From Chloroflexota bacterium (GTDB taxonomy: Bacteria > Chloroflexota > Dehalococcoidia > JACPQK01): DNA of 59,152 nucleotides. The stretch covers positions 1 to 59,152 of the forward strand of contig JACPQM010000021.1 in NCBI GenBank assembly GCA_016190505.1. Direction: 5' to 3'. A program made the translations under genes and the position numbers. The notes under the pieces are model-generated. The model had not been told where the DNA came from, made no database searches, and worked only from the letters and a program-made list of their open reading frames with translations. This document shows, one piece after another, positions 9,625-23,794 of this stretch (within the stretch, counting starts at the first letter, position 1; each line of letters opens with the position of its first letter).

Positions 9625-9846
9625 CTATGCCTCCCGCCAGTACTTTCCAGACGTCTTGTACACAGTGACAAGATGCATCCCCTCGTCTCTTTGCTCGACT
9701 ACCAGTCTAAGGAGCATTTCCTTGCCCTCGTAACGGTCAAGGTAGCGGCTCTGGTAGGCCAGCCGTCCTCTTCTCAAGGGTATCACCTGTGCCAGGTTTC
9801 TGGCCACCTCCAACACAAGCTCCTCATCAATGTGTCGGCGCTCCAT
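9625..9846 (-). CDS. DUF4258-family protein (toxin-like)
   Basis: Start chosen at 'MERRHIDEELVLEVARNL...'. The longer ORF listed to 10086 would overlap glyQS. 3-bp spacing to the DUF2283 gene. Confidence 0.6.
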   Translation of the reverse strand: MERRHIDEELVLEVARNLAQVIPLRRGRLAYQSRYLDRYEGKEMLLRLVVEQRDEGMHLVTVYKTSGKYWREA

Positions 9847-9881
9847 CTCAAAGCGGGCGTGGTCGCCAATATGGAGGCTGG

Positions 9882-11438
9882 TCACAGCCCCAGCCTTTCC
9901 CGCAGCGCCGCCGCCAGCTCGGCCACGGGCACACGGACCTGGGACATGGTGTCGCGCTCGCGGATGGTCACCGCCTTGTCCTCCAGGGACTGGAAGTCCA
10001 CGGTGACGCAGTAGGGGGTGCCCTGCTCGTCCTGGCGACGGTAGCGCCGCCCGATGCTCTGGGCGTCGTCGTAGGCCACCGCCCATCCTGAGCCTGCCGA
10101 AGGAGCGCGTAGCTCCCGGGCGATGTCCCGGGCCATGTTCACCAGCGGCTCCTTACGGCTCAGGGGCAGCACCGCCACCTTGACCGGCGCCAGCGCCGGG
10201 TGCAGGCGGAGCACTACGCGCGCTTCCTCGGTGCCCGCCGGAGGCGGCTCCTCGTCGTAGGCATCTATGAGGAAGGCCAGCGTCGCTCGGTCCACCCCAC
10301 CCGAGGGCTCGATAACGTAGGGGACGATGTGCTCTCCCTTCTCTCCCGAGCCTGTCGAAGGATCGAAATAGGCCAGCTTCTTGCCGGAGGACCTGGCGTG
10401 CTGGGTGAGGTCGAAGTCGCCCCGGTTGGCAATGCCCTCCAGCTCGGCCCAGCCCCAGGGGAAGGTGAACTCCACGTCGTAGCAGTCCTTGGCGTAGTGG
10501 GCCAGCTCCTCCTTCTCGTGCTGGCGCAGGCGGAGGCTGTCCGGGCGCAGGCCCAGCTTGAGATACCAGCCCCGGCGCTGCTCCAGCCAGTACTGGAGCC
10601 AGCGCTCGCCCTCCTCGGGCCGGACGAAGTACTCCAGCTCCATCTGCTCGAACTCCCGGGAGCGGAAGGTGAGGTGGCCGGTGGTGATCTCGTTGCGGAA
10701 GGCCTTGCCCGTCTGGGCGATGCCGAAGGGCAGGCGCATCCGGCTGGAGGTAAGCACGTTGTCGAAGTTGGCGAAGATGCCCTGGGCGGTCTCCGGGCGC
10801 ATGTAGATGACGGCGGACTCGTCCTCCACCGGGCCCAGGAAGGTCTTGAACATCAGGTTGAACATGCGGGGCTCGGTGAGGCTGCCCACGGCGCCGCAGG
10901 CGGGGCAGGGCACGCGGTCGCGGTCGGCGAGATCCTTCACCAGCACAGGCTTGATCTCTGTCAGGCTCGCCTTGAGCAGCTTCTTCGCTCTGGGGGCCAT
11001 CTCGGCAGCGGCTTCCTCCGGAGTGGAGCCTTCGCCGGTCACCAGGACAGGCGCCCCGTCCTTGTCCTTCACCCCGTTCACAAAAGCGGCCCACAGGTGG
11101 TCGGCCCGGAAGCGCTGCTTGCACACCTTGCAGTCAATGAGTGGGTCGGCGAAGCCGGCCACGTGGCCCGAGGCGTGCCACACCTGGGGGTGCATCAGGA
11201 TGGCGGCGTCCAGGCCGACCACGTCGTCGCGCTCCTGTACCATGGCCCGCCACCAGGCGCGCTTGACGTTGTTCTTGAGCTCGACCCCCAGCGGGCCGTA
11301 GTCCCACACGCTGTTGAGGCCGCCGTAAATCTCGCTGCTCTGGAAGATGAAGCCCCGCCGCTTGCACAGCGAGGCGATCTTGTCCAGGTCCACCTGGGAA
11401 GGCGAGAGATAGCGGGTGACGGACTGGGTTGTAGCCAT
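9882..11438 (-). CDS. glyQS: Glycine--tRNA ligase, dimeric class II (alpha2) type
   Basis: 518 aa; colinear with GlyQS of Thermus/Actinobacteria/Chloroflexi ('RGFIFQSSEIYGG', 'FRNEITTGHLTFRSREFEQMELEYF', 'GIANRGDFDL'). Confidence 0.9.
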   Translation of the reverse strand: MATTQSVTRYLSPSQVDLDKIASLCKRRGFIFQSSEIYGGLNSVWDYGPLGVELKNNVKRAWWRAMVQERDDVVGLDAAILMHPQVWHASGHVAGFADPLIDCKVCKQRFRADHLWAAFVNGVKDKDGAPVLVTGEGSTPEEAAAEMAPRAKKLLKASLTEIKPVLVKDLADRDRVPCPACGAVGSLTEPRMFNLMFKTFLGPVEDESAVIYMRPETAQGIFANFDNVLTSSRMRLPFGIAQTGKAFRNEITTGHLTFRSREFEQMELEYFVRPEEGERWLQYWLEQRRGWYLKLGLRPDSLRLRQHEKEELAHYAKDCYDVEFTFPWGWAELEGIANRGDFDLTQHARSSGKKLAYFDPSTGSGEKGEHIVPYVIEPSGGVDRATLAFLIDAYDEEPPPAGTEEARVVLRLHPALAPVKVAVLPLSRKEPLVNMARDIARELRAPSAGSGWAVAYDDAQSIGRRYRRQDEQGTPYCVTVDFQSLEDKAVTIRERDTMSQVRVPVAELAAALRERLGL

Positions 11439-11729: not shown

Positions 11730-11790
11730 TTGACGGGCGGGCGGCGCTCGGTTATTGTAAGCAAGGCACAAACCCCCTGGGTGGGGGTAT
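11730..11790 (+). promoter_or_regulatory. Sigma70-type promoter (TTGACG-17-TATTGT) plus downstream pseudo-palindromic operator 'ACCCCCTGGGTGGGGGTAT' (CsoR-like)
   Basis: Same architecture and near-identical operator as the sites at 12559-12622 and 21314-21378. Confidence 0.55.
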
Positions 11791-11837: not shown

Positions 11838-12512
11838 GTGCCAAAGAACAACACCAGGAAACGCGACAAGAAGCCCCGCCGGGGCAGGCGAATAGCCAGC
11901 GCCCTGCTCAACGCTGGCTTGATACTCCTGCTGGTGGTACTGACGCTTGCCCTGGGTGGAGCGCTGGCCCGCATCTTCGGCATATGGGGCGGCGACGAGG
12001 CGGACCACCAGGCTGCCCAGGCCGCTCAGCAGCTCCAGGACATAGCCACCGCCTCGGCTGTCCAGCAGGGGACGCCCGCACCCAACACCCCAGCAGGGCC
12101 ACCAAAGCGCATGGGGCCGGTGGAGGTCTCCACCACTGAGGTGGACCTGGGGCAGGTCCCCATCAGCCGGTGGGTGACCCCAAGCTTCAAGGTGCGTAAC
12201 GTCGGCCAGGCCCCTCTGGTGCTCATGTTCGACAACGTGGAGACCCTGGAGGGCTGCTGACCACCCATGCCAGTGGCGGGTCCCGCCACCACAGGCAACG
12301 TCTATGTCTTCAACAACATGCAAGGCACCCCCCTGCCCCGGCCGGTCATGGGCAGCCTCGACCCGCAACAGGAGGTAGAGGTCTGGCTTCAGATGTCCAT
12401 GGACCCGGGCATGGCCGGACCCCACCACTTCCGCCTCAAGGTATACCTGGCCGAGGAAAGTGGCCAGGAGTACCCGCCCCTGGAGTTCCACGTCAAGGGA
12501 ATGTTCGGATAA
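11838..12512 (+). CDS. Membrane-anchored DUF1573-like protein interrupted by an in-frame TGA at 12258-12260 (candidate selenocysteine codon or pseudogene)
   Basis: ORFs 11838-12260 and 12267-12512 are in the same frame: '...FDNVETLEGC-TGA-PPMPVAGPATTGNVYVF...'. N-terminal basic tail plus TM helix. 'VDLGQVPISRWVTPSFKVRNVGQAPLVLMFDNVETLEGC' resembles the DUF1573 fold, which carries a 'SCGCT' motif at this position. A 7-bp-stem/3-nt-loop (GUC) hairpin lies 13 nt downstream of the TGA. Confidence 0.4.
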
Positions 12513-12559: not shown

Positions 12560-12622
12560 TGACAGTACCGTCGGCAAGGGCTAGTATGTAGTCGTAAACC
12601 CTCACCCCCTGGGTGTGGGTAT
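12559..12622 (+). promoter_or_regulatory. Sigma70-type promoter (TTGACA-17-TAGTAT) plus operator 'CACCCCCTGGGTGTGGGTAT' upstream of csoR-copA
   Basis: The operator sits between -10 and the SD/ATG of csoR. Matches the GC-rich ATACCCC-N-GGGGTAT type of CsoR-family operators. Confidence 0.6.
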
Positions 12623-12631
12623 GGAGGCAGG

Positions 12632-12898
12632 ATGAAGCCGGAGACCAAGGCAGACGCCTTGAAGCGCCTGAACTACATAGAGGGGCACCTGAGCGGGGTG
12701 CGCCGCATGATCGAGCAGGACCAGTACTGCGTGGACGTGCTCAAGCAGATGTACGCCGTGCGCCAGGCCATTCGCAAGCTGGAGGCGCTCATTCTGGATG
12801 GCCACCTGCACACCTGCGTCGTCCACGGCATCCGGGACAACCGGGAGGAGCAGGTGGTCAACGAGCTACTCGACCTGTACAACCTGGCCGAGAAATAG
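12632..12898 (+). CDS. csoR: Copper-sensing transcriptional repressor CsoR (DUF156 family)
   Basis: 88 aa; DUF156 core 'YIEGHLSGVRRMIEQDQYCVDVLKQ...LDGHLHTCV' with a C...H...C ligand set typical of CsoR (rather than RcnR). Directly upstream of copA. Confidence 0.85.
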   Translation: MKPETKADALKRLNYIEGHLSGVRRMIEQDQYCVDVLKQMYAVRQAIRKLEALILDGHLHTCVVHGIRDNREEQVVNELLDLYNLAEK

Positions 12899-12907
12899 AG
12901 GGGCATT

Positions 12908-15478
12908 TTGGGCGAAACCAAACGTGCAGACGGCGTAGGGGCGCACGGCCGTGCGCCCCTACAGATGCCCATACGGGGCATGACTTGCGCCTCCTGCGTG
13001 GCCACCGTGGAAGGCGCCTTGAAGAGCGTGCCCGGCGTCAGCGCGGCCGTGGTCAACCTGGCCTCGGAGAAGGCGGCGGTGGAGATCAGCGATCCGCAGA
13101 AGGCCAACCTGCCCGAGCTGGTCAAGGCCGTCCACGAGGTAGGCTACGAGGTGGGCACTGAGAAGGTCACCATCTCCGTGGGAGATATGACCTGCGCCTC
13201 CTGTGTGGAGCACGTGGAAGGCGCTCTCCGCGAGCTGGCCGGGGTCACCCGGGCCGTGGTCAATCTGCCCACCGAGCGCGCCGCCGTGGAGTACATCCCC
13301 GGCCTGGTCGGCGTCGCCGACTTCCGGCATGCCATCGAGGATGTCGGCTACAAGTTCCAGGGCCTGGTGGAGGAGGGGGCCGCCGCTCTCGATAGAGAGC
13401 GCGAGGCCCGCCAGAAGGAGATCAGCCGCCAGCGCCGGAACCTGATCATCTCCTGGGCCCTAGGCCTGGTGATCATGGTGGGCACCTTCCAGCCGTACTG
13501 GTTCCTGCCCAGGGTCGTGCCCGCGTTCATGAACAATAAGATATTCCTGTTCTTCCTGACCACACCTATCGTCTTCGGGCCGGGCCGCCAGTTCTTCATC
13601 AACTCCTGGAATGGTCTCAAGCGCGGCCTGACCGACATGAACCTCCTCTACGCCACGGGAATCGGCGCCGCCTACCTTATCGCCGTCATCAACACCTTCT
13701 TCCCCGATGCCGGCTTCGGCGGGCGGGAGGCCACCTTCTACGAGGCGGCTGCCCTGCTCACCGCCTTCATCATCCTGGGCCGCTACCTGGAGGCGGTGAC
13801 CCGGGGGCGCACCTCCGAGGCCATCCGCCGCCTGATGAAGCTCCAGCCCAAGCGGGCACGGGTGCTCCGCGACGGACAGGAGGTCGAGGTCGCTGCCGAG
13901 GAAGTGCAGATAGACGACCTCTTGCTGGTCCGGCCCGGCGAGGCCATCCCCGTGGACGGCATGGTCACCGAAGGCTACTCCTCGGTGGACCAGTCCATGA
14001 TTACCGGGGAGAGTATCCCCGTAGAGAAGAAGGGGGGGGACGAGGTCATCGGGGGCACCATCAACAAGACCGGCGCCTTCAGGTTCCGGGCCACCCGCGT
14101 GGGCAAGGATACCGCCCTGGCCCAGATCATCAAGCTGGTGGAGGAGGCCCAGACCACCAAGGCCCCCATCCAGAAGATCGCCGACAAGGTGGCCGGCCAC
14201 TTCATCCTGGGGGTACACGCCCTCTCCCTGGCCGTGTTCCTGTTCTGGTTCTTCGTGGGCTTCGGCCTGTGGTTCAGCCCCGAGAGCCGCCTCATCCTTA
14301 CCCCCTACATGCTCACAGGTCTGGGCGTGTTCGGCTTCGCTCTACTGGTGTCGGTGACCGTGCTGGTTATCTCCTGCCCCTGCGCCGTGGGACTGGCCAC
14401 GCCTAGCGCGGTGATGGCGGGCACGGGCAAGGCCGCCGAGTACGGAATCCTGTTCAAGGGCGCCGACGCCCTGGAGAGCACCGCCCGCCTCCAGGTGGTC
14501 ATCTTTGACAAGACGGGCACCCTGACCAAGGGCGAGCCTTCCGTCACCGACGTGGTGGCCGTGGGCCGGAGCGAGCAGGAGGTGCTGCGCCTGGCCGCGG
14601 TGGCGGAGAAGAACTCGGAGCACCCGCTGGGCGAGGCCATCGTTCGAGGCGCCCGGGCCACAGGCATGGAGGTCCAGGACGCCGACGGCTTCGAGGCCAT
14701 CCCCGGCCACGGGGTCGAGGCCCGACTGAATGGCCGGACGGTCCTGCTGGGCAACCGCCGCCTTATGGCCCAGAGGAACGTCTCCCTGGACGGCCTGATG
14801 CCCCAGGCCGAGCGACTGGAAGGCGAGGGCAAGACCGCCATGTTCGTGGCCGTGGACGGCCAGCCCGCCGGTATCGTGGCCGTGGCCGACACTCTCAAGG
14901 AGACCTCCGCCCAGGCCGTCAAGGAACTCCACCGCATGGGCCTCCAGGTAGCCATGATCACCGGCGACAACCGCCGTACCGCCGATGCCATCGCCCGCCA
15001 GGTGGGCATTGACCGGGTGCTGGCCGAGGTGCTCCCCGAGGACAAGGCCAGCGAGGTGAAGAAGCTCCAGGCCGAGGGCCTCAAGGTGGCCATGGTGGGC
15101 GACGGCATCAACGACGCCCCTGCCCTGGCCCAGGCCGACTCCGGCATCGCCATCGGCTCGGGCACCGACGTGGCCAAGGAGACGGGCCACGTCATCCTGG
15201 TCAAGGACGACCTCATGGATGTGGTGGCAGCCATCCAGGTGGCCCGGCAGACCCTGCGCCTGATCAAACAGAACCTGGGCTGGGCCTTCGGCTACAATAC
15301 CGCGGCCATACCCATCGGGGCGGGCTTGCTCTACCCCTTCTTCTCCCAAGTGGTCAGCCCGGAGCTGGCCGCGCTGCTTATGGCCACCAGCTCCCTGTCG
15401 GTGACCATGAACACCCTGCGCATGAGGGGCTACATACCGCCCATCCGGCGGGCGCGGCTGGCGGAGGCGAAGGCATGA
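12908..15478 (+). CDS. copA: Copper-translocating P1B-type ATPase with two N-terminal HMA domains
   Basis: 856 aa; 2x 'GMTCASCV'; '[11 protein letters not shown]' (CPC), 'DKTGTLT', 'GDGINDAP'. Confidence 0.93.
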
Positions 15479-16299: not shown

Positions 16300-16923
16300 G
16301 TGGAACAGTGCCCCGAACCATTCGTAGTCCGGCTCGTCCGGCCCCCACTCCATATGATTCTCTGTGAGGGCTTGCGCAAGCGCACTGCCAGAGACTTTCA
16401 GGGTGTGATCGCTCAACTACTTCGGGAGATTGGTGGTGATGTGACGCCCGGGCCGATAGGAGCGGACGAAGGGGTAGACCTGCTGTGGAAGGCCACCGAC
16501 GGAGAGTTCATCGTCCAATGCAAGAAATGGAAGGCCAAAGTCGGTGTTCCTGTCGTGCGAGAGGTCTTCGGGGCGGCTATGCGGCACAAGTCCGCAGGTG
16601 CCATCATCGTGACCACAAGCGAGTTCACCGATGCAGCCAAAGACTGGACAATTGACCTCCGCATACCGCTTAGGCTGGTGGATGGCAAGCAGTTGTTTGA
16701 CTTGATGGACCAACGCATGCCAACTTTCGTGGCGAACGTCTTCAAAGAGGCCAATGTGGCTAGGTGCCCAGTGTGTGGGGATGGCGTGGACCTCCGCCTA
16801 GCCAAGGTATCCACGTCCTACGAGAACAAAGCGTATTACTTCTGGGCCGAGACTTGCCTCCGGTTGTTCCAGAGGGAACCCGGTCGCTTCGTCGGTGTGA
16901 AGTCTCCCAGAGCAGAAGGCTAG
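16300..16923 (+). CDS. Fusion protein: Mrr_cat-like restriction-endonuclease domain plus C-terminal YHS/TRASH metal-binding domain
   Basis: 'GADEGVDLLWKATDGEFIVQCKKWKAKVGVPVVREVFGA' (Mrr_cat: D..D...QCK), then 'CPVCGDGVDLRLAKVSTSYENKAYYFWAETC...FQREPGRF' (YHS-like). Confidence 0.55.
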   Translation: MEQCPEPFVVRLVRPPLHMILCEGLRKRTARDFQGVIAQLLREIGGDVTPGPIGADEGVDLLWKATDGEFIVQCKKWKAKVGVPVVREVFGAAMRHKSAGAIIVTTSEFTDAAKDWTIDLRIPLRLVDGKQLFDLMDQRMPTFVANVFKEANVARCPVCGDGVDLRLAKVSTSYENKAYYFWAETCLRLFQREPGRFVGVKSPRAEG

Positions 16924-16924
16924 C

Positions 16925-18058
16925 GTGGTCAGCATCGCCCGGCGCAACCTCTTCGCCGAACGGGGCCGCCTGTTCATAAGCGTGGGTGGGGTGGCCTTCG
17001 CCGTGTTGCTTATCCTGACGCTCTTGGGCCTCTATCGCGGCTTCACCAGGGCCTTCACCCTCTACATTGACAACGTCAAGGTGGACCTGTGGGTAGCCCA
17101 GCAGGGGGCCCGGGCCGACATGATGCACTCGGTGTCCCTGATGCCCCGGGGTACTCAAGGCAAGCTCGAAGCCGTGCCTGGAGTTGAGGAAGTGCACCCC
17201 TTCATCGGGCGCTCGGTGGTCTTTCCCTGGAAGGGAGAGGCTGTGAGCACCTACCTGGTGGGGTACGACGTGGACTCCAACCTGGGAGGGCCGCTCCGAG
17301 TGGCCCAAGGGAAAGCTGAGCCGGGGCCCGGAGAGATCATCGTTGACAAGGTATTCTCCCGCAACAAAGGGATCAGCCTGGGCGACCGGCTGCCCATCGG
17401 AGGGTCGCTGAGGGCGGACAGCAGTCCGCCCCTACAGGTGGTGGGCGTCGCCGAGGGCGGCAACACGGGCCTCTTCCAGTTTTCCTTCGTCTCCCGAAAC
17501 GAGGCCGAAAGTCTGTTGCAGATGACGGGCTTCGCCAACTACTTCCTGGTGCACCTGGACAGGGGCCAGGACCCGGCCCAAGCCGCGGCGCGCATCGAGG
17601 CGGCAGCCCCTGGGGTGAAGGCATTCACCGTTTCGGCCTTCTCCGAGAGCAACCGCGAGCTGCTCACCGAGATCTTCCTGCCTATCATCGCCGTCCTGGT
17701 GCTCATCGGTTTCGGCGTGGGCACCGTAGTGATAGGGCTGACCATATACACCGCCACCATGGAGAAGTCCCGGGAGTATGGCGTGCTCAAGGCCATCGGG
17801 GCAACCAACCGCCGCCTTTACCGGATAGTCCTGGAGCAGGCGATCATATCGGACATGCTGGGCTATGCCCTGGGAGTGGTGCTGGCCTTTGTCGTGGTCG
17901 GAGCGGCCGAGCGGTTCGTGCCCGTGTTCGTGGCCGACCTCCAAGTCCTGGACCTGGCGGCAGCACTGGGCATTGCCCTGCTCATGGGCGGACTGGCGTC
18001 ATACTTCCCGGTGAGCCGGCTGGTGCGCCTGGACCCCGCCCTGGTGTTTCGAGCGTAG
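16925..18058 (+). CDS. ABC transporter permease, FtsX/MacB-like
   Basis: 377 aa; N-terminal TM, large periplasmic domain, three C-terminal TMs; followed by its ATPase. Confidence 0.78.
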   Translation: MVSIARRNLFAERGRLFISVGGVAFAVLLILTLLGLYRGFTRAFTLYIDNVKVDLWVAQQGARADMMHSVSLMPRGTQGKLEAVPGVEEVHPFIGRSVVFPWKGEAVSTYLVGYDVDSNLGGPLRVAQGKAEPGPGEIIVDKVFSRNKGISLGDRLPIGGSLRADSSPPLQVVGVAEGGNTGLFQFSFVSRNEAESLLQMTGFANYFLVHLDRGQDPAQAAARIEAAAPGVKAFTVSAFSESNRELLTEIFLPIIAVLVLIGFGVGTVVIGLTIYTATMEKSREYGVLKAIGATNRRLYRIVLEQAIISDMLGYALGVVLAFVVVGAAERFVPVFVADLQVLDLAAALGIALLMGGLASYFPVSRLVRLDPALVFRA

Positions 18059-18059
18059 C

Positions 18060-18905
18060 ATGGCCACCGATACGGTACTCGAGCTGGTGGGCGTGACCCG
18101 GGTGTTCGGGGAAGGCGCCGGGCAGGTGGTGGCTGTGGAGAGGGCGGACCTACGGGTCGGGAAGGGGGAGTTGCTGCTTATCATGGGCCCCTCGGGCTCG
18201 GGGAAGACCACGCTCCTCACCATGGCCGGGGGCTTGCTCCCGCCCACCTCGGGCCACATCCGCCTGGGCGGCCGCGACCTCACCGCTCTGTCCGATGGAG
18301 AACTCTCCCGCCTGCGGCAGCAGCACATCGGCTTTGTCTTCCAGTCGTTCAACCTGCTGGCCGCCCTGACCGCGCTGGAGAATGTCGAGGTGGCCCTGGG
18401 GCTAGCGGGCAGGGACGGTCAGGGCGCCAAACGGGAGGCCCGCCGTCTGCTGGAGGACCTGGGCCTGGGACACCGCCTCCACCATCACCCGCGAGACCTG
18501 TCAGGTGGGGAGAAGCAGCGGGTATCCGTGGCCCGCGCCCTGGCCAACAACCCCGAGCTGGTGCTGGCCGACGAGCCTACCGCCAACCTGGACTCGCAGA
18601 AGGGCCGTGAGGTGGTAGAGCTGCTGCGCAAGGTGGCCAAGGAAATGGGCAAGACGGTCATCGTGGTCAGCCACGACCACCGCATTCGGGAGCTGGCGGA
18701 CCGGGTGCTGTGGCTGGAGGACGGCAAGCTCAAAGAGATGGAGGTACACCGGGACCCGGTCTGCGGCATGGAGATAGACCCCGCCCGGGCCAAGGCCAGC
18801 CTGGCGTACGAGGGCAAAGTCTACTACTTCTGTGCCGCAGGCTGTCTCCAGTTGTTCCAGAAGGACCCCGGTCAGTTCTTGGCGTCACAGTCATCCGCCC
18901 TGTGA
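18060..18905 (+). CDS. ABC transporter ATP-binding protein (MacB/LolD-like) fused to a C-terminal YHS metal-binding domain
   Basis: Walker A 'GPSGSGKTT', signature 'LSGGEKQRVSVARAL', Walker B 'LVLADEPT'. C-terminal 'DPVCGMEIDPARAKASLAYEGKVYYFCAAGC...FQKDPGQF'. Confidence 0.85.
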   Translation: MATDTVLELVGVTRVFGEGAGQVVAVERADLRVGKGELLLIMGPSGSGKTTLLTMAGGLLPPTSGHIRLGGRDLTALSDGELSRLRQQHIGFVFQSFNLLAALTALENVEVALGLAGRDGQGAKREARRLLEDLGLGHRLHHHPRDLSGGEKQRVSVARALANNPELVLADEPTANLDSQKGREVVELLRKVAKEMGKTVIVVSHDHRIRELADRVLWLEDGKLKEMEVHRDPVCGMEIDPARAKASLAYEGKVYYFCAAGCLQLFQKDPGQFLASQSSAL

Positions 18906-21313: not shown

Positions 21314-21378
21314 TTGACACAAACCATGCGGCACCCTATAATCGAGGTTGATACCCATACCCCCTGGGTAGGGGATGG
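21314..21378 (+). promoter_or_regulatory. Consensus sigma70 promoter (TTGACA-17-TATAAT) plus operator 'ATACCCATACCCCCTGGGTAGGGGATGG' upstream of ccmE
   Basis: Perfect -35/-10 hexamers with a 17-nt spacer. The downstream pseudo-palindrome is near-identical to those ahead of csoR and the DUF1573-like gene. Confidence 0.6.
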
Positions 21379-21390
21379 AAGGAAGAGAGC

Positions 21391-21843
21391 ATGACAGGGA
21401 ACGCGCTACAACCCATGCCCGCTGCCCCGACTGGTCCCCCCAGGCCGAAACCCCACCGCCGGTGGAGACTCCTCATCGTCGGTGGTATCGTGCTGCTCGC
21501 CCTGGGCTTCCTGGGCTTCAAGGCCTTCCAGGGGGCAGCCATGTTCTACTACACCGTCCCCGAGTTCAGGGCCTCACCGGAGTACACCACGGGCGAACAG
21601 GTCCGCGTGGGGGGCAAGGTGGCGCCCGGCTCCGTGGAACGCCACCAGTCGGGCCCGGGCCTGAGTTTCGCCGTCACCGACGGCTCGGACAAGCTCCTGG
21701 TCCACTTCTACGACATCGTGCCCGATTCCTTCGCCGTGGACCAGGACGTGGTCGTGGAGGGGACCATGAGCGCCGAGGGCTACTTCGCCGCCCAGAACCT
21801 CATGGTCAAGTGCCCCTCCAAGTACGTGCCGAGAGTGGGGTGA
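21391..21843 (+). CDS. ccmE: Cytochrome c maturation haem chaperone CcmE, CxxxY variant
   Basis: 150 aa; TM anchor plus OB-fold; 'VVVEGTMSAEGYFAAQNLMVKCPSKYVP' aligns to E. coli 'VVVQGELEKG..LAKEVLAKHDENYTP' with Cys in place of the haem-binding His130. Confidence 0.78.
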   Translation: MTGNALQPMPAAPTGPPRPKPHRRWRLLIVGGIVLLALGFLGFKAFQGAAMFYYTVPEFRASPEYTTGEQVRVGGKVAPGSVERHQSGPGLSFAVTDGSDKLLVHFYDIVPDSFAVDQDVVVEGTMSAEGYFAAQNLMVKCPSKYVPRVG

Positions 21844-21847
21844 TAAC

Positions 21848-23794
21848 ATGGCCGACCTGGGATACGCTGCCCTAGTTATCGCCCTGGCCGCCGCCGCCTT
21901 CGCCACAGTGGCGCCCCTGGTGGGCCTACGCTGGCGGCTGCCAGCCCTTATTGACAGCGGGCGCAGCGCGCTCTGGGCTGCGGCTAGCCTGGTGTCCGTC
22001 GCCGGGCTGTCCCTGCTCTACCTGCTGGCCACGCGCGATTTCAAGACCCAGTACGTGTACCAGTACACCAGCAGCGATATGTCTATGCTCTACACCCTGG
22101 CCGCGTTCTGGGCAGGGAACGCCGGCTCACTCCTGTTCTGGGCGTGGACCCTGGGCCTGTGCGCCGTAGTCATGCTCATACAGAACCGAAACAAGAACCA
22201 GGCCCTCATGCCCTACGTCACGGCCATAGTCGCGGTCACCATGGGCTTCTTCGTGGGCATGATGGTCTTCGTCTCTAACCCCTTTGACCAAATGGTCTTC
22301 CCTCAGGCCGAGGGAGAGGGCCTCAACCCGCTGCTGGAGAACATGGGCATGTTCCTCCACCCACCCCCTCAGCTCCTGGGGTACATGGCCTTTACCATTC
22401 CTTTTGCCTTCGCCGTCGCCGCCCTGGCTACGGGCCGGCTGGGTGACGAGTGGATTCAGAGCATCCGCCGGTGGACGATCTTCGCCTGGCTGACCCTGGG
22501 CGTGGGCATCCTGGCCGGCGCCCAGTGGGCCTACGTGGAGTTGGGCTGGGGGGGCTACATGGGCTGGGACCCGGTGGAGAATGCCGCCCTCATGCCCTGG
22601 CTGGTGGGGACCGCCTTCCTGCACTCGATCATGGTGCAGCGGCGCCGGGGGATGCTCAAGGTCTGGAACATGATGCTCATCATCTTCACCTTCAATCTGA
22701 GCATTCTGGGCACCCTTCTCACCCGCAGTGGCATTCTGTCCTCGGTGCACTCCTTCTCCCAGTCGGGCCTGGGCCCGCTGTTTGTGGCCTTCATCGCCGT
22801 CGCCATGACCGGCTCCCTGGCCTTGCTCTACTACCGCATGCCCAAGCTCCGGGCAGAGCACGAGCTGGACTACTGGGTTTCCCGAGAGAGCACCTTCCTG
22901 GTGAACAACCTGGTGCTGGTGGGCATCGCCTTCGCCGTCTTCTGGGGCACCATGTTCCCGATCATTACCGAGGCGGTGCGGGGTGTAAAGATAACGGTGG
23001 GCCCGCCCTTCTACAATCAGGTGACGGGACCTCTCTTTCTGATACTGCTCTTGGTGATGGGCATCTGTCCCCTCATCGGCTGGCGGCATGCCTCCAAGGA
23101 CAACCTGGTCCGCAACTTCCTCTATCCCGTGGCCTTTGGCGTGGCAGCGGGCATCATCCTGTTCCTGCTCGGGGTGAGAAAACCGGCCGCCACCATATCT
23201 TTCGCTGTGCTCGCTTTTGTGACCGCAGGCATCCTCCGCGACTGGTCCCGGGCGGTGCGCGCCCGGCGCCAGATGAGGGCCGAGGGCTGGCTGCGCGCCT
23301 TCCTCCGGCTCACGGGCTCCAACCGGCCCCGCTATGGGGGCTACATCGTGCATCTGAGCGTGGTGGTTATGGCCCTGGGCATCACCGGCTCGATGTTCTA
23401 CCCACTGGAGACCACCGCCACGCTCAACCCCGGCGAGACCGTGTCCATTGGCCGCTATGTCCTCAAATTCGAGGGTGCCTCCGAGTATCAGACGCAGAGC
23501 AAGCAGGTGCTGGCCAGCACGCTGACCGTCTACACCGGCGGCGACTACCTGGGCACGGTGACCCCAGAGCGCTACATCCATCGCAACCACGATAACCCCG
23601 TGACCGAGGTGGCCATCCGCAGCACCCTGAAGGAAGACCTCTACGTTATCTACGGGGGCAAGAACCCCGACGGCACGGCCACCTTCAAGTTCAAGGTGAA
23701 CCCGATGGTCATGTGGATCTGGATCGGTTGGGGTGTGATGCTGCTGGGCTCGGCGGTGGCCTTCTGGCCGGAGATGAAGCGATGGACCGCATAG
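21848..23794 (+). CDS. ccmF: Cytochrome c-type biogenesis protein CcmF (haem lyase)
   Basis: 648 aa; ~15 TM segments; WWD domain 'WGGYMGWDPVENAALMPWL'. Confidence 0.9.
   Translation: MADLGYAALVIALAAAAFATVAPLVGLRWRLPALIDSGRSALWAAASLVSVAGLSLLYLLATRDFKTQYVYQYTSSDMSMLYTLAAFWAGNAGSLLFWAWTLGLCAVVMLIQNRNKNQALMPYVTAIVAVTMGFFVGMMVFVSNPFDQMVFPQAEGEGLNPLLENMGMFLHPPPQLLGYMAFTIPFAFAVAALATGRLGDEWIQSIRRWTIFAWLTLGVGILAGAQWAYVELGWGGYMGWDPVENAALMPWLVGTAFLHSIMVQRRRGMLKVWNMMLIIFTFNLSILGTLLTRSGILSSVHSFSQSGLGPLFVAFIAVAMTGSLALLYYRMPKLRAEHELDYWVSRESTFLVNNLVLVGIAFAVFWGTMFPIITEAVRGVKITVGPPFYNQVTGPLFLILLLVMGICPLIGWRHASKDNLVRNFLYPVAFGVAAGIILFLLGVRKPAATISFAVLAFVTAGILRDWSRAVRARRQMRAEGWLRAFLRLTGSNRPRYGGYIVHLSVVVMALGITGSMFYPLETTATLNPGETVSIGRYVLKFEGASEYQTQSKQVLASTLTVYTGGDYLGTVTPERYIHRNHDNPVTEVAIRSTLKEDLYVIYGGKNPDGTATFKFKVNPMVMWIWIGWGVMLLGSAVAFWPEMKRWTA

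Follow-up and report, generated by a model that had tools for sequence, protein, structure and literature searches.

A putative selenoprotein gene with an in-frame UGA, a SECIS-type hairpin and a copper-linked setting in a Chloroflexota bacterium

A 2026 inventory of prokaryotic selenoproteins lists 119 families, including a DUF1573 selenoprotein with a U-G-C motif and several metal-related families with a C-U motif, where U stands for selenocysteine (Sec) (PMC13188914). The DUF1573 form (PF07610) was predicted from a study of an Olavius symbiont (PMC13188914, PMC9312934), and the predicted metal-related C-U proteins include SaoC, MbdU, HgcA, the CopZ-like 2Fe-2S form 2, a YHS-domain protein, CYCXC/OS_HP4 and the SO_0444 Cu/Zn efflux protein (PMC13188914). 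Chloroflexi have been reported to include Sec users (PMC1794560). Here we describe a gene on contig JACPQM010000021.1 of a Chloroflexota bacterium, one entire 59-kb contig of a metagenome-assembled genome (MAG), whose 59,152 nucleotides are called the window throughout. At positions 11838-12512 a single reading frame is interrupted by one UGA, which is followed by a hairpin of the bacterial Sec insertion sequence (SECIS) type. Comparison with relatives makes it very probable that this is a selenoprotein gene in which UGA codon 141 is read as Sec. The proposal as a whole, which joins Sec decoding to a membrane-anchored, immunoglobulin (Ig)-like product and copper-linked regulation, is likewise judged probable.

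The frame has TGA at 12258-12260 as its sole internal stop and ends with TAA at 12510-12512. Around the internal stop it reads FDNVETLEGC-TGA-PPMPVAGPATTGNVYVF, and it closes with MFG-TAA (an alternative excerpt after the TGA is PPMPVAGPATTG). The elements on which the argument turns are as follows.

11838-12512, + strand: complete candidate selenoprotein gene of 224 codons, with a GTG start, the predicted Sec codon at 141 and a TAA stop; the start aligns with the ATG of an orthologue on contig L001
12255-12266, + strand: C-U-P-P motif, with Cys140, UGA/Sec141 at 12258-12260, Pro142 and Pro143
12272-12290, + strand: bacterial SECIS-type hairpin, stem 12273-12279 with 12283-12289, loop 12280-12282

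The GenBank entry for the gene is merely a 140-residue fragment, HYY01_03080. A preliminary description had instead read the open reading frames (ORFs) 11838-12260 and 12267-12512 as one frame parted by a TGA, with a hairpin of 7-bp stem and GUC loop starting at the 13th nucleotide past it; translation and coordinates agree on both counts. The GC content at third codon positions is 0.82 in each half, a coding-type value for a window of 64% GC, and no other TGA of the window lies in a plausible gene with coding signal both before and after it. The possibility that the window holds a second selenoprotein gene was thereby rejected, every other TGA lacking convincing coding signal on at least one side; the same scan of L001 gave no other such TGA. 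Global reassignment of UGA was also rejected, since TGA terminates 11 other well-supported ORFs of the window, glyS and copA among them.

The strongest evidence comes from relatives, whose DNA was taken from the contigs of HMMER matches, two GTDB genomes and one NCBI MAG. Thirteen distinct intact members were assembled in this way (the window, L001, L003, L004, L006, L014, L015, L019, L020, L021, L022, L023 and L024), and all 13 have TGA at the same codon of a single frame, in the context [E/Q/V]GC-TGA-PP. Among the members found in this branch, all intact ones thus retain the predicted Sec codon, and the two halves remain fused in frame in each, whereas separate, unrelated ORFs in relatives were what the preliminary description had named as a refutation. 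The orthologue on the 77-kb metagenome contig L001 is 74% identical, with TGA at the equivalent codon. Among the 84 aligned codons after the TGA, 45 are identical between window and L001, 29 differ synonymously and 10 non-synonymously, and the differences fall 9, 5 and 31 times at the first, second and third codon position. The downstream half is therefore translated in that frame and is, judged from these substitutions, under purifying selection in it. Protein databases tell the same story from both ends. All 15 clusters of N-terminal fragments in a database of 5.8 billion proteins end in GC, and when the C-terminal half was searched exhaustively with HMMER against 1.84 billion representatives, it matched nine clusters, each an ORF of 64-79 residues that starts at least 4 codons past the TGA, with no full-length protein among them. 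A word-based search with the fused protein matched itself and one orthologous fragment, P0002. GTDB genomes scanned with the single window protein gave no match, and the genome of the window therefore lies outside the GTDB representative collection.

A Cys partner exists for the predicted Sec. Searching with a profile of the Sec forms brought up four full-length homologues without the TGA, which read LEGC-C-PS, EGC-C-PG, QGC-C-PG and LEGC-S-PP at the corresponding site. A profile of those four in turn matched more than 670 proteins of about 190 residues with the same plan of anchor, linker and domain; the named ones belong to Acidimicrobiales, Ilumatobacteraceae and other Actinomycetota. In 121 full-length TGA-less homologues (mostly from Actinomycetota) the column aligned with the UGA holds Cys in 120 and Ser in 1, so that the motif is G-C-C-P in these forms (G-C-C-A in one) and G-C-U-P in the Sec forms. 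The expectation that homologues would carry Cys at this codon was borne out, and with it the idea of an exchange between Cys and Sec; the partner, though, is a separate unnamed G-C-C-P family and not the C-G-C motif of DUF1573, whose proteins the preliminary description had named for a conserved Cys cluster at this position. The C-U-P-P motif is unchanged in all 10 of the Sec forms aligned. The Sec forms also share a stretch of about 24 residues, AGPATTGN-FVFNNM-G-PLP-P (at about 12276-12350 of the window), which is missing from all Cys and Ser forms and starts exactly at the position that encodes the hairpin, which suggests that the SECIS element was gained together with the insertion. The Cys-form family itself (P0029-P0149), membrane-anchored and with the motifs G-C-C-P-G and M-H-P-G-M-D-G-P-H, is covered by no Pfam or NCBIfam model; its members show only a sub-threshold match to choice-of-anchor-D.

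The hairpin, GUGGCGG-GUC-CCGCCAC at 12273-12289, has a 7-bp stem and a GUC loop. Twelve nucleotides separate the UGA from the stem and 19 separate it from the loop. The next pair outward, 12272/12290, is an A-C mismatch in the window and G-C in most relatives, and across the 13 sequences the element is an 8-bp helix with a 3-nt loop, with the stem starting 11 nt past the UGA in most relatives. In this alignment 96% of the cells are paired, and compensatory changes are seen at 3 of the 8 pairs. Pair 33-45 is G-C, U-A or C-G depending on the member and pair 30-48 is G-C or U-A, while at pair 32-46 U-A is turned into A-U in L019, with the encoded residues changed from Val to Glu and from Thr to Ser. 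When columns were shuffled 500 times, the observed values were matched by at most 1 shuffle on four of five measures and by 4 on the fifth; when partner columns were slid against each other as a control, pairing collapsed to much lower values. RNAalifold recovers the same helix unguided. The loop opens with G followed by U or G in the members, and in L024 it is A-G-U. The published consensus for bacterial SECIS elements (bSECIS) specifies a loop of 3-9 nt, a stem of 4-16 bp, a G at loop position 1 or 2, a distance of 16-37 nt between the UGA and the loop, and a minimum free energy of at most -7.5 kcal/mol (PMC13188914). With its 3-nt GUC loop, 7-8 bp stem, spacing of 19 nt and minimum free energy of -16.6 kcal/mol, the window's element lies within all four constraints, and folding the RNA downstream of the UGA, a check proposed at the outset, thereby spoke for the prediction, as did the covariation of the helix.

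The product is predicted to be a small anchored domain, with three parts relevant to its possible function.

11898-11987, + strand: single transmembrane anchor at about residues 21-50, after an N-terminus rich in Lys and Arg, as read from the translation
12111-12509, + strand: PapD/ASH-type Ig-like beta-sandwich domain with sub-threshold DUF1573/HYDIN-like matches and the UGA inside it
12399-12425, + strand: Met/His loop MDPGMAGPH (M-x-x-G-M-x-G-P-H), with the Cys-Sec pair a candidate set of metal ligands

The anchor architecture is common to all relatives, and by the positive-inside rule the N-terminus should lie inside and the domain outside the membrane. Residues invariant across Sec and Cys forms are G-C-[U/C]-P and the M, G, M, G and H of M-x-x-G-M-x-G-P-H; one additional Met is invariant among the Sec forms. 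Such a composition would fit the binding of a soft metal, and formation of a selenenylsulfide by the vicinal Cys-Sec pair is conceivable. The gene had been introduced as encoding a DUF1573-like membrane protein, a label that holds for the membrane anchor and a weak similarity and fails for membership. DUF1573 (PF07610) scores 18.2-19.3 bits against a gathering threshold of 26.1, the best family member reaches E=2.4e-4, and in 9 of 10 members the matches are sub-threshold alone; HYDIN_VesB Ig scores about as well. The S-C-G-C-T motif of DUF1573 is absent, its place being taken by E-G-C-U-P-P (G-C-C-P in the Cys forms). In alignment with a true DUF1573 protein, P0032, S-C-G-C-T lies over L-E-G-C-U, so that the second Cys alone is shared and the Sec falls on the Thr after the C-G-C motif.

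Against the PDB, the family profile finds the ASH repeats of FAP74 (E=4e-7); the single domain used as a sequence query in the PDB gave chance matches to interferon lambda only. The fold was modelled on the Cys homologue P0015, not on the Sec protein (AlphaFold, 121 sequences), and the model is an all-beta sandwich with a predicted local distance difference test (pLDDT) score above 90 across the domain. Its closest solved folds are the ASH domains of CEP192 and HYDIN, the chaperones PapD and FimC, the Ig domains of VesB and VesC, and 2qsv of P. gingivalis. By this model, the protein is a member of the wider PapD/ASH Ig-like superfamily, whose mark is a beta-sandwich of seven to eight strands like those of ASH, HYDIN, PapD and DUF1573 structures.

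The candidate selenoprotein gene stands directly before csoR and copA.

11730-11758, + strand: promoter-like site TTGACG-17-TATTGT from a consensus scan, upstream of the selenoprotein gene
11771-11790, no strand assigned: CsoR-type operator AACCCCCTGGGTGGGGGTAT, a G-tract pseudopalindrome between promoter and start codon
12559-12587, + strand: promoter-like site TTGACA-17-TAGTAT for csoR-copA, from a consensus scan
12603-12622, no strand assigned: second CsoR-type operator CACCCCCTGGGTGTGGGTAT, a G-tract pseudopalindrome before csoR
12632-12898, + strand: csoR, copper-sensitive operon repressor family (PF02583, E=3e-25)
12908-15478, + strand: copA, P1B-type ATPase with two HMA domains

In L001 the first promoter-like site has the equivalent TTGACA-17-TACTGT, and the operators take the perfect form TACCCCCTGGGTGGGGGTA before both the selenoprotein gene and csoR. 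The operator-like sites of window and L001 resemble, in their TAC/GTA arms, the experimentally defined CsoR operators of Streptomyces lividans, such as TACCCCCTAGGGGTA (PMC3902906). Gene order is common to both contigs: selenoprotein gene, csoR, copA, FtsX permease, and an ATP-binding cassette (ABC) ATPase with YHS domain. The earlier placement of the gene in a copper regulon is consistent with these data, an operator and a promoter-like site standing before it and csoR-copA after it in window and L001 alike; with an operator and a csoR gene in its locus it is a putative member of the CsoR regulon. At 21315-21376 a near-consensus promoter, TTGACA-17-TATAAT, is closely followed by a third CsoR-type operator, ATACCCCCTGGGTAGGGGAT, and the operator lies directly upstream of ccmE (21391-21843) and ccmF (21848-23794); the ccm genes are therefore apparently in the same copper regulon.

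Several neighbours of the cop locus deserve mention. Downstream of copA (window 16925-18905, L001 14012-16055), the permease is of FtsX/MacB type and the YHS domain of the ATPase, a metal-binding domain, is C-terminal. Just before this pair, at 16300-16923, lies an ORF with an Mrr-type restriction endonuclease domain and a weak YHS match. A CopC-CopD fusion of 666 residues at 33858-35858 is another copper-handling gene of the contig, and a DDE_3 transposase with helix-turn-helix domains (IS630-like, 6731-7873) precedes the cop locus by a few kb. Other members have other surroundings. In L015-L018 and L024, genes for a NapH-like Fer4_5 protein and a CYCXC/PCYCGC protein are immediately upstream of the selenoprotein gene; in L015, YHS, HesB/IscA-like and CuA-type cupredoxin genes precede this module as well (L015 466-4534), and in L024 (8149-10489) groES-groEL come next after it. 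A PCYCGC gene is also upstream in L006, L007, L009 and L021, and an ArsP-type permease is near the gene in L023. Six loci (the window, L001, L003, L014, L022 and L023) were examined for a PCYCGC/CYCXC gene, and none has one; the CYCXC association is therefore limited to part of the family. CYCXC/PCYCGC is itself a family with known Sec forms.

A number of observations weigh against a copper-linked selenoprotein, or against parts of that interpretation. Neither selA, selB, selD nor tRNA-Sec was found in the window (59 kb) or in any of the retrieved loci with intact members; the search combined Pfam scans of large ORFs (window, L001, L022 and L023) with the gene tables of L010, L015 and L024 and with tRNA scans. 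The hairpin of the window, taken by itself over 43 nt, has z = -1.7, with 12 of 200 shuffles (about 6%) equally stable, and over 71 nt z = -0.2; as the single-sequence fold is within chance, the weight of the hairpin rests on the relatives. A scan of 12200-12360 with Rfam, at E up to 10, gave no SECIS family and only a spurious match to a long non-coding RNA, which is unsurprising since bacterial SECIS elements are heterogeneous (PMC13188914). In one lineage, L010-L013, the family is represented by a decayed copy, which has two frameshifts and a damaged, mismatched hairpin. With respect to copper, no metalloprotein is among the nearest solved folds and none of the solved structures that share this fold is a copper protein, the left arm is imperfect in both window operators (AAC and CAC for TAC), and the L022 locus has no copper or metal genes nearby.

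Some further observations concern Sec use and the decayed lineage. The latter was seen on contigs from four samples. On L010 the decayed copy (9500-10237) is accompanied by a GrdB homologue (1726-3021, minus strand), annotated as two genes, with a canonical in-frame TGA in the context LTST-U-GSSTRCG. Within the window, 28117-29985 encodes an aldehyde:ferredoxin oxidoreductase, of a tungsten or molybdenum enzyme family, and 39398-41950 an 850-residue molybdopterin oxidoreductase whose frame is uninterrupted and hence has no Sec codon.

How else might the interrupted frame be explained? Were the UGA a true stop, the N- and C-terminal halves would be made separately and might assemble, with the hairpin modulating re-initiation. 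Gene callers do annotate the halves as separate, and most members have GTG or ATG at a Val codon 12 nt after the TGA. Yet L019 has GAG at that place and no start codon at all from the TGA to the hairpin, and the ATG at 12267 of the window is not a conserved restart, since it is ATA in L001. Both Pro codons right after the TGA are invariant as protein, the domain runs without interruption through the 121 homologues with Cys in place of the TGA in all but one, and a split would fall in the middle of the beta-sandwich. Separate synthesis of two halves is therefore given little credence, even less than the read-through considered next.

Full-length but selenium-free protein might also arise by Sec-independent read-through, whether the hairpin stimulates near-cognate decoding as Trp, Cys or Arg or the UGA is decoded in a different way. 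Downstream structures are able to promote stop-codon read-through, and the lack of Sec machinery in the sequence searched counts in favour of this route. Against it, 11 other ORFs of the window end normally at a TGA, the spacing and loop sequence of the element fit the bSECIS consensus, and the aligned residue of the homologues is Cys, the classic partner of Sec; a Cys sense codon would be simpler, yet TGA is retained in all intact members of the branch. We consider such read-through unlikely. A pseudogene, nonsense mutation or sequencing error in the genome of the window would agree with the GenBank annotation of a 140-residue fragment alone, and the related lineage L010-L013 is truly frameshifted. 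However, the identical TGA is found 13 times over, in independent sequences that stem from different samples and assemblers, which excludes a sequencing error or private nonsense mutation, and the frame is intact, with purifying selection downstream and a covarying hairpin. The chance of this explanation is minimal, and by the comparative data it is, for practical purposes, refuted.

If the gene encodes a selenoprotein, its mechanism is canonical, with a UGA and an in-frame SECIS. The UGA at 12258-12260 would be read as Sec on the signal of the hairpin within the coding sequence, presumably bound by SelB with Sec-tRNA(Sec). The product would be held in the membrane by a single N-in anchor, from which a linker rich in Gln, Ala and Pro leads to an outward-facing Ig-like domain of PapD/ASH type; there Cys140-Sec141, in a domain loop, and the Met/His loop would together most likely form a Cu(I) site or a redox-active selenenylsulfide site. 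Since a promoter-like site and a CsoR-type operator of its own precede the gene, copper would be expected to derepress it jointly with csoR-copA. At the outer face of the membrane the protein could then act as acceptor, buffer or chaperone for copper exported by CopA. The odds of such an extracytoplasmic copper-handling role appear about even. More tentatively, and with the balance tipping slightly towards doubt, the gene may be the founding member of an uncatalogued Chloroflexota family in which selenolate, thiolate and Met/His loop ligate Cu(I), and thus the first Sec-based protein of copper trafficking or detoxification, switched by CsoR.

The catalogues appear to lack this family. No entry of the 2026 inventory of 119 families has G-C-U-P-P in a membrane-anchored Ig-like protein, and an NCBIfam search with the protein gave no match, NCBIfam having curated models for most predicted selenoprotein families. 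As far as could be checked, the link of a selenoprotein to CsoR is new as well. In public records the gene is mis-annotated as a hypothetical protein of 140 residues, and all relatives found share this fault; merging the halves recovers a conserved family that NCBIfam and Pfam models miss, with the merged gene as an added candidate for the prokaryotic selenoproteome. Selenium use would thereby be tied to copper homeostasis, through a predicted surface-exposed Sec protein, a copper sensor and an adjacent copper pump. Beyond a few characterised enzymes, direct interactions of Sec with ligands await confirmation (PMC13188914). On this question the present domain would be convenient to work with, being small and having plentiful natural Cys counterparts. 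The locus also offers an example of SECIS evolution, in which the stem is kept by compensatory changes that alter encoded residues and the element is tied to an insertion that the Cys forms lack.

The closest described system is the DUF1573 selenoprotein. Like the present protein it is a predicted PapD-like Ig-like beta-sandwich with Sec in a Cys-rich loop past the third or fourth strand, and both are suggestive of metal or redox chemistry. In DUF1573, however, Sec is the first Cys of C-G-C, whereas here it lies one residue past the second Cys position. In addition, the present protein has a transmembrane anchor, a 24-residue insertion and a Met/His loop, and the Cys counterparts of its family form a separate G-C-C-P family. 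With the metal-related C-U selenoproteins it shares a Sec that adjoins a Cys and ties to metal handling, and members of its own family adjoin CYCXC-type, YHS and ArsP-type genes; by sequence it is unrelated to those selenoproteins, and fold, membrane anchoring and CsoR control differ.

Two better-known groups of proteins offer functional parallels. Extracytoplasmic Cu(I) chaperones and acceptors such as CupA of S. pneumoniae, CopL of S. aureus, CusF and PCuAC are small beta-rich domains that bind Cu(I) via Cys, Met and His; their genes frequently lie in cop operons, next to those for a CopA-type ATPase and a copper-sensing repressor. To our knowledge, none of these proteins has Sec. The present protein resembles them in its small beta-rich domain and cop-operon setting and departs from their cupredoxin, DUF1541 and OB-like folds, its own copper binding being a prediction. 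Mammalian thioredoxin reductase, in turn, has a C-terminal Gly-Cys-Sec-Gly redox centre. It is an unrelated protein from another domain of life with another type of SECIS, and here the motif lies within the chain, before Pro-Pro; a redox role drawn from this likeness is speculative. What the two have in common is a vicinal Cys-Sec pair preceded by Gly, able in thioredoxin reductase, and potentially here, to form a selenenylsulfide.

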